The notes beneath the pieces were generated by a model. The model did no database searches, was not told where the DNA came from, and worked only from the letters and a program-made list of their open reading frames with translations. Below are positions 27,112 to 30,618 of a stretch of DNA of 64,000 nt, in pieces. The stretch spans positions 10,863 through 74,862 of the forward strand of contig JAHQWW010000007.1 of NCBI GenBank assembly GCA_029856365.1, read 5' to 3'. Numbering within the stretch: the first letter of the stretch is position 1; every line of letters begins with the position of its first letter. A program made the position numbers and the translations under genes. The stretch is from Candidatus Hodarchaeota archaeon (GTDB taxonomy: Archaea; Asgardarchaeota; Heimdallarchaeia; Hodarchaeales; Hodarchaeaceae).

Positions 27112-27660
27112 ATGCCTACAAAATTGTTTGGTCGAGAGATAGAAAATCAAATAGCATTTGTTGGCCTTGCAAATGCGGGGAAAACTACCTTAGTTAAAAG
27201 ACTTAAGGGAGACGATAATCTAGAAACCGTACCAACAATGGGGATGAATATTGAGACTTTAAAAATTGGTGACATTGAAGTAATGGCTGCAGATCTAGGA
27301 GGACAGGCAACATATCCGACGAGCTTATGGAAACCATTTGTTTCAGATGCATCAGGTATTGTGTTTGTATTTGATTCTGCAGACAGATCTAAAGTCGAGA
27401 ATGCGGGAAAGTGGTTGAAGAACGTCATTCAATGGGCGCCAGAAGATTCTGCATTTCTTTTCTTGGCAAATAAACAAGATTTAACAGAAGCAATGACTCT
27501 TGAAAGAATTATTTATACATTAGAACTTGAAAAAGAGATGGCTGCAAGACCTAGAACGTTTGCTGTTTATCCTTGTTCTGCATTAACAGGTGATGGGGTC
27601 GAGGAACCGTGGCAGTGGATGAGCGACAGGTTTCGTCATAGAATGTCACAAAAAAAATAG
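27112..27660 (+). CDS. Arf-family small GTPase 1
   Basis: GLANAGKTT, PTMGMN, DLGGQ, W, FVFDSAD, NKQD and CSALTGDG. Confidence 0.92.
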   Translation: MPTKLFGREIENQIAFVGLANAGKTTLVKRLKGDDNLETVPTMGMNIETLKIGDIEVMAADLGGQATYPTSLWKPFVSDASGIVFVFDSADRSKVENAGKWLKNVIQWAPEDSAFLFLANKQDLTEAMTLERIIYTLELEKEMAARPRTFAVYPCSALTGDGVEEPWQWMSDRFRHRMSQKK

Positions 27661-27669
27661 GTGCCCCAT

Positions 27670-28233
27670 ATGAGTTTCCTTTCAAAGCTTCGCGCAAAAT
27701 TTGCCAAAGAAAAATTAACGGTAAAGATCGCGTGGCTGGGTCTTGACCAGGCAGGGAAAACTACATTAGTCAAAAGAATAACATCTGGAGAGTTTAACAG
27801 TAGTACTTTCCGAACATTAGGGATGAATGTTGATGAATTTAGTTCGGGAAATGTTCGATTTATTTCTTGGGATATTGGGGGGCAAGAAGCCTTTCGTGAA
27901 TCTCTTTGGGAAAGCTATATGGCAGGTAGCATGGGAATCGTATATGTGGTGGATTCAGCCGATAGAGCTCGACTCTCAGAAGCTAAGATGGAATTATGGA
28001 AATATGTCCTTGATAATGATAAAGTTGAAAACATACCAATTTTAGTCCTTGCTAATAAACAGGATCTTGAAAATGCCGCTTCAGCTGGAGAGGTTGCTCG
28101 AGGGCTCAATCTTCATAAAGTTACGACACATTCATATGCTATCGTTCCCACGTCTGCCAAAACTGGTTTTAACGTTGAGGAAGGACTTGAATGGCTTCGC
28201 CAAAGGGTGACTGAAAAAATCGATCTCTTATAG
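27670..28233 (+). CDS. Arf-family small GTPase 2 with N-terminal amphipathic helix
   Basis: MSFLSKLRAKF, GLDQAGKTT, TLGMN, WDIGGQ, VVDSAD, NKQD and TSAKTG...GLEWL. Confidence 0.94.
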   Translation: MSFLSKLRAKFAKEKLTVKIAWLGLDQAGKTTLVKRITSGEFNSSTFRTLGMNVDEFSSGNVRFISWDIGGQEAFRESLWESYMAGSMGIVYVVDSADRARLSEAKMELWKYVLDNDKVENIPILVLANKQDLENAASAGEVARGLNLHKVTTHSYAIVPTSAKTGFNVEEGLEWLRQRVTEKIDLL

Positions 28234-28283: not shown

Positions 28284-29093
28284 CTAACGTTTTTTCTTCA
28301 TGACTACCTTTTCAGAAACCTCATTAATCCGGTCACAAAGTGCAAGAAACAGTGCATGTAACCTTTCCAGATTCAAATCTTTGTTAATTCGTGCATAAAT
28401 ACGAATGGATGGATCATCAGCAGAATTGACAGAAATTCTAACAACTACTTTTCTAACATTATGAATCAGTTTCAAAAGGTTTTTATCACCGAGAAAGTAT
28501 GTTCCTGTCCGTTGGGTGGTCGCTTTAACCAAAAAAAAATCATCAAATCTTTTTACTCCGAGCTCGATGTCTTCAAGTGTAAACAGGAAATCTTGATGTT
28601 TTTTTATTTGACCTTCTTCATGTTTAGGTATGATCTGAATCTTGGTAGGAATTTGAGAACGGATTTCTCCCTTTTTTGAGTTTGCCTCTAGTGCTATATA
28701 ATCATTTACTCCTGCAAACCATGAGATGATGACTGATAACATGAGATGCCTTTCTTCTAGGGCAAATACCACACGGAAGTCTTGAAAGGGTATATCATGT
28801 GATCTCTTGTACTTGGGAAGTAACAAACCCCCGTTTGAACTCATTTCATCCATAACAAGATCATCGAATTCGTTTGTAAAGACTTCCAACAATGCTTCTC
28901 GTGATAATCGCATAATTTTGCGATTTTTTCGTCTTCCAGCCCATAAAAGGTAGAATGTAAAGAATAGAACCGTCCCTGGGCCTAAGAATATTAAAACATA
29001 GTCTATCATCCCATATCCTTCTTGGAGGAAAAAACGAGGAAAATTTTCTAGAGGAAACTCAAAAAATCCCAAATTCAACATCATTGAACTCAT
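28284..29093 (-). CDS. Single-pass membrane protein resembling CCDC47/DUF1682 (PAT complex subunit)
   Basis: TM followed by GRRKNRKI...L...F, then VFALEERHLMLSVIISWF...DYI and LHALFLALCDRI. The order and pattern follow CCDC47 as recalled. Confidence 0.6.
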   Translation of the reverse strand: MSSMMLNLGFFEFPLENFPRFFLQEGYGMIDYVLIFLGPGTVLFFTFYLLWAGRRKNRKIMRLSREALLEVFTNEFDDLVMDEMSSNGGLLLPKYKRSHDIPFQDFRVVFALEERHLMLSVIISWFAGVNDYIALEANSKKGEIRSQIPTKIQIIPKHEEGQIKKHQDFLFTLEDIELGVKRFDDFFLVKATTQRTGTYFLGDKNLLKLIHNVRKVVVRISVNSADDPSIRIYARINKDLNLERLHALFLALCDRINEVSEKVVMKKKR

Positions 29094-29222
29094 GGCTCAT
29101 AATTAGCTTGCAAATTTAAATTATTTTTCGTCGGAATCTTGTTTTTAATTTGCATTCTGTAGGAAAATGCTTCAATTCGTTGACGCTTTTCCCCTCAAAA
29201 TATGTTAAATGACTAAGGGTTC

Positions 29223-29822
29223 TTAATGCTGTATAAAGCTAGCAATTTCCTTGTATCTGAAGGAATCTTTCCCATTTTCCCCTATAACTTGGTAAAATTG
29301 AAAAGCAGCACGACCAGAAATATCAATCTTGGTAGGTTCAATAACAAGTGCAATAGAAAGAGCATTGTGGAGCTGAAAAGAATAAATATGAGTTTTTATA
29401 TCTGTTTGAGATAAAAATAGGCCATATCCAGGATGAGAATGCCACCAACCAAGGCAATAATAGTCATCTTCCAATATATCTTCAAAAACCCTAAAATCTT
29501 CTTCAGAAAAAGAAACAGATACTTCATCACCTTCAGAAACAAAAATGATTTTTAATATTTCCAATTCTTTGGGACGTAGTTCTTTCCCACCTAACAGACC
29601 AATAGCTTCCCTAGGCATAGATTTTACTGAATATTCAGTTATTTCATCAAGTAATTTTCCTAAGATTGATACTGACTTAACTTGGGGAGATGAAGGAATT
29701 TTTAACTTTTCGATTTCCGCTTGTTTACCAAAAAAGCCCTCTTGTATTTTATTAGTAGTCTTCCCTTCCGTTATTTTATAATTTTCTGCCCTCAATCCTT
29801 TTTGTTTATTATTGTCAGACAT
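29223..29822 (-). CDS. JAB1/MPN+ (JAMM) metalloprotease, Rpn11/BRCC36-like deubiquitinase
   Basis: EAIGLLGG ... GWWHSHPGYGLFLSQTD (E-HxH-x7-S-x2-D). Confidence 0.93.
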   Translation of the reverse strand: MSDNNKQKGLRAENYKITEGKTTNKIQEGFFGKQAEIEKLKIPSSPQVKSVSILGKLLDEITEYSVKSMPREAIGLLGGKELRPKELEILKIIFVSEGDEVSVSFSEEDFRVFEDILEDDYYCLGWWHSHPGYGLFLSQTDIKTHIYSFQLHNALSIALVIEPTKIDISGRAAFQFYQVIGENGKDSFRYKEIASFIQH

Positions 29823-29854
29823 AGATCATCCACAATACCAATTCCACAAGAAGT

Positions 29855-30397
29855 TTACTTTGCATGCTTCTTGGTCCAATCTTCAGCTGTTTCCCAGAAT
29901 TTATCAAAATTTGTTTTCATCATCTCTCCAGCTTCAGGATTAAAGGGATCATTTGGATCAACAAGATATTCTGGAAAATCTACATCCCCTGTTGCCTGAT
30001 AAACATCTAACATCATTTCAACATGTTCAAAGACACTGGGCAAAGTTATCGTTTCCTTCCAACCACCAGGTTTCCCTAAGTTATTCCAATTCACAAGACT
30101 TAAGCATACATTGGAGCCCCAGTTCCATTGAGTTTTACCAGTTGCAATATTAGGGTGATATATAGGAGTCAGAAAGTTGATAATTGGAGGTTTAAAGGGA
30201 TATTCAGAAGGTAAGTCAAGAGTGATCTCCCATTTACCTCCCTCATAAGGAGTATTTTTCTTTCCTTTAATAGTCGCTTTGTAATGATGAAGGTCATTAT
30301 TGACTATAGCCCATTTAATGGGACTTTTTTTCGGTGGATAAGTTTTCAACATCCGTTTGAACTCTTCTCGTAGCCGTCTAGAGTGTAAATCCTGCAC
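29855..30397 (-). CDS. Ubiquitin-conjugating enzyme E2
   Basis: RRLREEF, I.G..NTPYEGG, YPFKPP.I.F.T.IYHPNI, catalytic VCLS and DPFNPEA. Confidence 0.95.
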   Translation of the reverse strand: MQDLHSRRLREEFKRMLKTYPPKKSPIKWAIVNNDLHHYKATIKGKKNTPYEGGKWEITLDLPSEYPFKPPIINFLTPIYHPNIATGKTQWNWGSNVCLSLVNWNNLGKPGGWKETITLPSVFEHVEMMLDVYQATGDVDFPEYLVDPNDPFNPEAGEMMKTNFDKFWETAEDWTKKHAK

Positions 30398-30618
30398 GAT
30401 CTTACCATCCTACCATTTTTATCATTATATAATCTATGATAAATTATAATTTAATATCATTTAACGCTAAAGATAACTTATAAATTATACAAGGTTGCCG
30501 ATATTTAAAGCTGTGGCTAGGAAATGGAAGAAAAGGTGTAGAATAAGCTAGCTTTTTAAGGTCTAAAGACTGACTCATCTTGCACGAACATTCCTCACAT
30601 AATGGGTGATCAAAAAAA

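Follow-up and report, generated by a model that had tools for sequence, protein, structure and literature searches.

In the window, a 64,000-nucleotide stretch of a contig from a Hodarchaeales archaeon (Asgardarchaeota; Heimdallarchaeia), the gene at 28284-29093 on the reverse strand very probably codes for an archaeal protein that is truly, though remotely, homologous to the membrane-proximal CCDC47 core. CCDC47, also known as calumin, docks on the ribosome as a scaffold with which eukaryotes build multi-pass membrane proteins; it is the partner of Asterix in the PAT complex and belongs to the multipass translocon of metazoans as well as to the SND3 translocon of fungi. The alignments and models described below show the homology, in which we have high confidence, and the architecture of the protein; its function is one that we infer, and an association with the ribosome or the translocon, argued by analogy with CCDC47, is put forward tentatively.

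CCDC47 has been described as conserved across eukaryotes (PMC7505659), and the Oxa1-type insertase is to date the only component of the multipass translocon that has been followed back to archaea (PMC12572126). Our literature search returned no paper joining CCDC47 with Asgard archaea and no report of an archaeal CCDC47; the CCDC47 literature that it found mentions archaea for the Oxa1 family only, and what was found under DUF1682, PF07946 or IPR012879 consisted of plant papers only. A few relatives already carry PF07946 or DUF3137 by automatic database annotation. What is new here is the pair of short- and long-tailed paralogues in the Hodarchaeales, the series of tail lengths across the family, the finding that linkage to E2, JAMM and Arf genes is bound to one genus, and an explicit tie to distant relatives of the DUF3137 type and to the mycobacterial protein TtfA.

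Sequence and structural evidence for kinship with CCDC47

The open reading frame (ORF) is complete, running from an ATG start through 269 codons to a stop codon that lies within 28284..29093 (reverse strand), and the ORF list, the homologues, the AlphaFold model and the fold match together describe its product as a single-pass membrane protein with a CCDC47-like cytosolic domain. Comparison of sequences indicates that this is a real gene and not a chance ORF, because 66 homologues were found at E<=1e-55 in a collection of 5.8 billion proteins and mean column identity is 67% over 26 aligned close relatives. Across its own Hodarchaeales genus the protein is kept at 60-95% identity. The window is AT-rich (~35% GC), and the genome to which it belongs (G000; 4.24 Mb in 204 contigs) is 83.6% complete.

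Among Pfam models, PF07946 (CCDC47; formerly DUF1682) is the top match of the window protein, residues 42-170 aligning with positions 11-152 of the hidden Markov model (HMM) at 14.8 bits (E 0.016). The gathering scores used here are 27.7 bits for PF07946 and 26.1 bits for PF11335 (DUF3137). Three Heimdallarchaeia relatives exceed the former (L042, 37.9 bits; L040, 32.6 bits; L033, 31.8 bits), the best E value of any relative against PF07946 being 1.5e-9, and the match of L040 spans HMM positions 8-314 of 326. PF07946 is matched by 17 of the 26 close relatives and by 38 of 80 diverse family members, only 7 of the 80 matching DUF3137; an exhaustive phmmer search of 1.84 billion representatives adds several distant relatives with PF07946. 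When a profile of the 80 sequences was compared with 177,635 distinct PDB sequences, CCDC47 was the best match (6w6l_7 and 7tm3_4/7tut, E 0.015), in an alignment that takes in the transmembrane (TM) helix, the GxxKN motif and the conserved arginine and aspartate. HMMER aligns the family consensus aGrrKNkki with the juxtamembrane GKNKN of CCDC47, and the family block LeeRh...D with a block of CCDC47 that an initial annotation of the window had quoted, so that R115 and D131 pair with R and D of human CCDC47. In the ESM Atlas the nearest Pfam-named cluster is CCDC47 (score 0.83), followed by TtfA (0.76; Pfam PF28092 in the Atlas listing), a result that we use as a lead only.

The initial annotation had proposed a CCDC47-like protein on the basis of four short strings, all of which are present in the translation: GRRKNRKI at residues 53-60, VFALEERHLMLSVIISWFAGVNDYIALEA at 109-137, DKNLLKLIHNVRKVVVRISVN at 203-223 and LHALFLALCDRI at 245-256. 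Its identification agrees both with the HMM search, in which PF07946 ranks first, and with the predicted structure. The further claim that these strings run collinear with CCDC47 stands at the level of HMMER for the first two; the last two are covered only by the structural alignment of residues 32-267 with CCDC47 residues 135-404.

An AlphaFold model built from the 80-sequence alignment reached a pLDDT of 90.3 and a pTM of 0.83, an earlier alignment of 26 close sequences having given an unusable pLDDT of 55. In this model a helix (residues 29-71) passes through the membrane into the cytoplasm, an alpha/beta domain occupies residues ~76-235, and a further helix follows at 242-268. Foldseek, which the initial annotation had named as a check, ranked CCDC47 chains first, second and third in the PDB, each with probability 1.00 and TMq 0.53-0.61: 7tm3_4 (rabbit, E 7.1e-8), 9i78_4 (C. 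thermophilum, E 9.0e-8) and 6w6l_7 (human, E 2.4e-5). The CCDC47 chains are chain 7 of 6W6L and chain 4 of 7TM3/7TUT and 9I78. A second search, independent of Foldseek and covering 48,161 representative chains, likewise placed CCDC47 first (7tut_4, Z 18.1, root-mean-square deviation 3.2 Å, 225 aligned residues, model residues 32-267 on CCDC47 135-404) and second (fungal CCDC47, 9i78_4, Z 16.7), followed by TtfA (Z 11.2) and then by generic folds of the type III-chaperone or YbjN-like kind (Z <=6.5). The cytosolic domain, as modelled, has the fold of the CCDC47 globular domain.

The anatomy of the protein follows from these alignments, all coordinates being on the reverse strand. Residues 1-29 (29007..29093) form a short segment at the N-terminus that is predicted to face the exterior of the cell, with a net charge of -2 by residue count and, in the close alignment, an FLQ motif conserved in the clade, of which L23 and Q24 are invariant; AlphaFold pLDDT over these residues is 58-67. 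Next comes the sole TM helix, residues 30-52 (28938..29006), supported by the Kyte-Doolittle profile, the model and the CCDC47 alignments: there is a single hydrophobic segment, the top 19-residue windows begin at residues 29-35, and the helix aligns with the TM region of CCDC47 from residue 142 (HMMER) or 135 (structural alignment). As had been claimed, this hydrophobic stretch directly precedes GRRKNRKI. The basic juxtamembrane motif G-[RK]-[RK]-K-N, here GRRKNRK (residues 53-59; 28917..28937), was delimited by HMMER and conservation and has GKNKN as its CCDC47 counterpart. Fold searches and conservation define residues 60-241 (28371..28916) as an alpha/beta globular domain on the cytosolic side, equivalent to that of CCDC47, in which R115, D131 and P228 are near-invariant. 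The remaining residues, 242-269 (28287..28370), comprise one C-terminal helix, seen in the model at 242-268 and in the structural alignment, and a basic tail, MKKKR.

Over the 80 diverse members, G53 is conserved in 79, N57 in 67, R115 in 79, D131 in 76 and P228 in 75, so that each of these positions other than N57 is at least 90% conserved. The flanks of the TM helix carry net charges of -2 on the N-terminal side and +6 on the C-terminal side (residues 53-67), and by the positive-inside rule the N-terminus is therefore predicted to face outward and everything after G53 to be cytoplasmic, the single-pass topology also described for CCDC47 (PMC7505659). The cytosolic part is basic in all 80 members, with isoelectric points of 8.85-10.3 (window protein, 9.54).

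The window protein and CCDC47 thus have in common the TM helix, a juxtamembrane motif G-x-[KN]-K-N, a globular domain with its Arg and Asp, the first helix after that domain and a basic C-terminus. They differ in length (269 against 483 residues) and in location, the prokaryotic cytoplasmic membrane as opposed to the endoplasmic reticulum (ER). Whereas CCDC47 has a signal peptide and an acidic luminal domain, with ~130 residues on that side of the membrane, the archaeal protein has neither; its 29 residues before the TM helix contain no cleavable signal-like n-region and, judging from the alignments, appear to stand in place of both. The initial annotation was also right that CCDC47's long C-terminal coiled coil is lacking here, 28 residues being all that follow position 242.

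Distribution, tail length and wider relatives of the family

A profile search detected the family in 108 of 399 genomes of the phylum, representing 30 of 85 genera, with E values from 1e-99 to 1e-10. Every one of the other 21 genomes of the genus has a member, as do most families within the class; in one large family of the phylum no member was found in any of 135 genomes at E<=0.001. A second homologue search, by word index, yielded mostly the same close relatives, and the final homologue search returned archaeal proteins only.

Many genomes of the genus carry two copies. The second copy in the genome of the window (G000, contig C21, L003:1414-2274, forward strand) encodes 286 amino acids that are 28% identical to the window protein; its tail is 57 residues long and basic, and it belongs to a clade of its own (support 100) that is present in many genomes of the genus. 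A 375-residue protein without a Pfam match sits 5' of this paralogue, in a position that is conserved (L097, L098). Measured after position 242, tails have 28 residues in the window clade and 57 in the paralogue, reaching 87-94 in L037 and L040, whose K/E-rich, helical tails match the Pfam model almost to its end.

In a quick maximum-likelihood tree, built without eukaryotic CCDC47, the window clade comprises 27 rows (support 98) and has a neighbouring family as its sister; the paralogue clade is separate, and a further clade of other Heimdallarchaeia families holds the best scorers against the CCDC47 model. These other Asgard forms (the paralogue, 286 residues; L040, 308 residues; L042, 275 residues) have the same architecture and the same motifs as the window protein and fall with it in Group II, the Heimdall-type branch. 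In comparison with them, the window clade has the shortest tail of Group II and a longer N-terminal segment with the FLQ motif, and whereas three forms from families f3-f7 (L033, L040, L042) clear the Pfam cut-off, the window clade does not. Because longer-tailed relatives and an in-genome paralogue exist, the window copy is a short-tailed form of the family and not the sole CCDC47-like protein of Asgard archaea.

Group I is more distant; one of its members, from Bathyarchaeia, carries the NCBI name 'DUF3137 domain-containing'. Profile comparison of Group I with the window clade gave an hhalign probability of 98.9% (E 3.5e-17) over 200 columns, which indicates that the two are truly homologous. 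A third, very divergent copy of the Group I type occurs in two genomes of the genus (L057:350-1057 in G070; L058:383-1108 in G058); none was found in G000, with its completeness of 83.6%.

DUF3137 is an uncharacterised family of bacteria and archaea. Its match to the window protein is below the cut-off (14.6 bits in a protein scan, 15.4 bits in a six-frame scan) and limited to residues 145-210, in the latter half of the domain, the model covering part of the domain but nothing of TM/GxxKN. The window ORF is nonetheless the sole match of this HMM in its genome, in a search in which DUF3137 clears the cut-off in a bacterial control genome, and the Group I relative P0085 carries matches to both PF11335 (31.7 bits, above the cut-off) and PF07946. 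TtfA (PDB 6T84) resembles the window protein in three respects: it is anchored by a TM segment at its N-terminus, its cytoplasmic domain has the same fold (Z 11.2, 160 residues), and its C-terminal tail is variable. Its match is, however, much weaker than that of CCDC47, and no sequence-level match was found. In mycobacteria, TtfA, in which the N-terminal TM helix is followed by a cytoplasmic domain and by a C-terminal tail that is dispensable, binds the RND transporter MmpL3 (PMC6593404). Together, the homology of Group I, the DUF3137 matches and the TtfA fold point to a prokaryotic superfamily of long standing, made up of cytoplasmic domains with a TM anchor, of which the Heimdall-type members are closest to CCDC47. 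The ESM Atlas also hints at unnamed look-alike clusters of bacterial and euryarchaeal origin, which are unverified leads.

Genomic context

Upstream of the gene, in a 129-nt gap that separates it from the JAMM gene, the sequence contains an A/T-rich, TATA-like element, AAAAATAATTTAAATTT (29112..29128, reverse strand), centred ~24 nt 5' of the ATG; this may be a promoter of its own, and would give a near-leaderless mRNA. A scan for sigma-70 promoters and terminators returned signal at the level of shuffled sequence only, from models that do not apply to archaea.

The CCDC47-like gene is co-oriented with, and downstream of, the genes for JAMM (29223-29822) and E2 (29855-30397), both on the reverse strand, as had been noted in the initial annotation; this linkage is confined to one genus. 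Together with a Zn-ribbon protein (30619-31413), a ubiquitin-like protein (Ubl; 31349/31436-31756) and E1 (31796-33025), all on the forward strand, they make up a complete ubiquitin-like conjugation set at 29223-33025, of a type known from Asgard ubiquitin clusters. Beyond it lies a gene for a multi-zinc-finger protein of 583 residues (33573-35324). On the other side, and convergent with the CCDC47-like gene, two abutting forward-strand genes encode the Arf-family GTPases ArfA (27112-27660; PF00025, 133.6 bits) and ArfB (27661-28233; PF00025, 162.6 bits). Both pass the model of the signal recognition particle receptor beta subunit (PF09439; 46.6 and 40.7 bits, respectively), and both are syntenic throughout the genus.

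The block that runs from a threonyl-tRNA synthetase (ThrRS) gene through ArfA and ArfB to the oppositely oriented CCDC47-like, JAMM and E2 genes is intact at each of the 21 loci from the genus, even where the CCDC47-like protein is as little as 60% identical. L027 and L029, from the sister family within this order, no longer have the E2/JAMM/Arf linkage, and within 4 kb of the gene in 30 diverse loci of other lineages we found no homologues of E1, E2, JAMM, Ubl or the WH/RING protein. The recurrent neighbours in these 30 loci are a KaiC-like ATPase, Nnr, a nucleotidyltransferase and, for Group I, CstA. The KaiC/RecA-like ATPase (~220-236 residues; PF06745, 85 bits) directly adjoins the CCDC47-like gene in 8 loci from several Heimdallarchaeia families (for example L074:3225-3890, L082:4786-5487, L083:3484-4149, L085:2974-3672 and L089:4874-5554), and genes for Nnr, an NAD(P)H-hydrate repair enzyme, and for the nucleotidyltransferase are often near this pairing. 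Group I members lie less than 1 kb from a CstA-family transporter gene in 7 loci (L084, L086, L091, L092, L099, L100, L103), near which there are often one or two ORFs of ~90-120 residues without a Pfam match.

In three genera of family f4, a gene for a Ras/Rab-like GTPase (PF00071, 109 bits) lies 69-151 nt 5' of a long-tailed CCDC47-like gene on the same strand (L077:4771-5400, reverse; L078:3284-3847 and L080:3329-3898, forward). The two could form an operon; the association is not statistically compelling. The genome of the window alone contains 58 small-GTPase genes in its 4.24 Mb, so that adjacency in 2 of ~19 family-level lineages is not beyond what chance would produce (P ~0.1, an estimate).

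Possible roles and alternative explanations

The globular domain of CCDC47 touches eL6 and helix H25 of the rRNA (McGilvray et al., PMC7505659), and its C-terminal coiled coil reaches Sec61, rRNA helix H24 and the exit tunnel (PMC7505659). By analogy, the window protein would retain the part that lies under the membrane and faces the body of the ribosome, and would be without the part that reaches the channel and the tunnel; it may therefore be a simpler anchor, one without channel regulation. In our proposal it is anchored in the cytoplasmic membrane with its basic domain kept just beneath the bilayer, where it could serve as a scaffold or docking factor for the biogenesis of multi-pass membrane proteins, by the SecYE-beta channel, an archaeal Oxa1-type insertase or both. 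The basic domain and tail might touch rRNA or acidic lipid, much as the globular domain of CCDC47 touches H25, and the longer-tailed paralogue in the same genome, like the long K/E-rich tails of other Heimdall lineages, may supply the missing part. A gene for an Oxa1-superfamily insertase of the EMC3/TMCO1 family is present in the genome (55.6 bits); insertases of this type occur in other archaea too.

A number of observations weigh against this reading, some against the kinship and others against the proposed role. On its own, the window protein remains under the gathering score of PF07946 (14.8 against 27.7 bits), and since its relatives are above the cut-off, its membership of PF07946 appears to be transitive, by way of those relatives and not from its own sequence alone. 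Profiles from the single sequence and from the close clade retrieved nothing relevant among PDB sequences, and profiles of single subclades missed CCDC47 there, the best match being 9i78_4 at E 1.5. Because these narrower profiles fail to reach it, the alignment-based link to any single CCDC47 sequence is marginal; that to the family HMM is significant. Identity between the window protein and CCDC47 is just 9-14%. As regards function, the ~80-residue charged coiled coil of CCDC47 is missing, the alignment stopping at CCDC47 residue 404 of 483, and eL6, one of the contacts of the globular domain, is to our knowledge eukaryote-specific. An Asterix-like partner, for which the initial annotation had suggested a genome search, did not emerge: a six-frame HMM search of the 83.6%-complete genome for Asterix (WDR83OS; PF03669), a small, divergent membrane protein that could escape detection, gave nothing credible (best E 0.72, in a frame with stop codons). 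The PAT complex in eukaryotes is defined by the CCDC47-Asterix pair (PMC9630114), and because no credible Asterix was found in this genome, the label 'PAT complex' cannot be transferred to the archaeal protein. Among subunits of the GEL and BOS parts of the multipass translocon, matches to TMEM147 (13.3 bits) and EMC6/OPTI (16.4 bits) in the genome were below their cut-offs. Nor did the 30 diverse loci reveal a conserved linkage to secY, ribosomal or insertase genes, so the context does not speak for a translocon role, and it favours a tie to the Ubl and Arf genes in this lineage only.

The description of the window protein as a precursor of an ER chaperone, made in the initial annotation, combines an evolutionary with a functional inference, and its fold is also found in bacterial DUF3137 proteins and in TtfA. 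The chief alternative to a ribosome- or translocon-associated role is a TtfA-like job: with fold and ancestry unchanged, the protein would serve one multi-pass transporter or membrane complex as an accessory subunit dedicated to it and independent of the ribosome, binding it by way of the TM helix and the cytosolic domain. This we consider somewhat less likely, though several observations favour it: TtfA is the next fold match after CCDC47 (6t84; Z 11.2 over 160 residues; Foldseek E 5.7e-3), and in TtfA, a protein of the same build, this fold does a non-ribosomal job, the binding of MmpL3 (PMC6593404). Moreover, Group I, homologous to the window clade, adjoins CstA transporter genes in 7 loci, and the window protein is without the coiled coil that reaches the ribosome. 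However, no transporter gene lies beside the window gene or its Group II homologues, the CCDC47 match is far stronger (Z 18.1 against 11.2) and includes the TM helix and GxxKN, and the cytosolic part is basic in all members, as would fit contact with nucleic acid or lipid. The TtfA/MmpL3 pathway of mycolate export is, as far as we know, absent from archaea.

The neighbouring genes suggest another role, restricted to this genus, as membrane anchor or receptor of the adjacent Ubl system (E2, JAMM, Ubl, E1, WH/RING) or of the two Arf-like GTPases, which the protein would recruit to the membrane or to membrane-bound ribosomes. The intact ThrRS-Arf-CCDC47-like-JAMM-E2 block in 21 of 21 loci speaks for it, as does the Ras-like GTPase directly 5' on the same strand in the three f4 genera. 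We nevertheless regard it as improbable, given that the Ubl/Arf linkage is lost in the sister family (L027, L029), that no Ubl-system homologue lies within 4 kb in the 30 diverse loci, and that, with 58 small-GTPase genes in the genome, GTPase adjacency in 2 of ~19 lineages is expected by chance about once in ten; furthermore, a 129-nt gap with a TATA-like element separates the gene from JAMM, and the gene is convergent to ArfB. That the likeness to CCDC47 is mere convergence, or a chance match of a common alpha/beta arrangement, is very improbable indeed. The low identity and the sub-threshold Pfam score would be compatible with this, and the domain also resembles type III secretion chaperone and YbjN-like folds (Z 5-6.5). 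But relatives clear the curated Pfam cut-off with E values down to 1.5e-9, the conserved R and D fall within the collinear match, along with GxxKN and the TM helix, and CCDC47 stands 7-12 Z units above the generic folds, with 225 of 269 residues covered. Convergence is thus largely refuted by the profile alignment, the Pfam passes of the relatives and both fold searches.

Returning to the proposed scaffold, a more speculative scenario, to which we give rather little credence, is that the CCDC47 core, TM helix plus globular domain, predates eukaryotes and worked in Heimdall-group archaea as a scaffold for assembling multi-pass membrane proteins close to the ribosome and SecY, that the paralogues of different tail length represent stages towards the Sec61-gating coiled coil, and that the short-tailed copy of this genus has also been wired to a Ubl/Arf-GTPase membrane module. 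With a homologue near-universal in Heimdallarchaeia, the eukaryotic signature proteins that trace back to Asgard archaea would gain a translocon accessory factor, the second so far, and it becomes testable whether the archaeal ancestor, at a time before the ER existed, already assembled multi-pass proteins in a ribosome-coupled, chaperoned way. What the family offers is a minimal CCDC47 core of 220-310 residues with natural variants in tail length, handy for structural and biochemical dissection. Its link with TtfA and DUF3137 suggests that all three belong to a single ancient superfamily, one of cytoplasmic adaptors that are TM-anchored and serve multi-pass membrane proteins.

Two further matches were recorded in the course of these searches. 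P0069, a protein of 4736 residues from the representative library, aligns with the query over 9 distinct stretches (107 bits), of which the best covers the FLQ-TM-GRRKN region; it could be a repeat protein, or else reflect a gene model joined in error. A 1088-residue frame in the genome of the window (G000:C165:26967-27209, forward strand; L001) matches positions 185-267 of the PF07946 HMM at 18.7 bits, which we take to be a match of the coiled-coil type.

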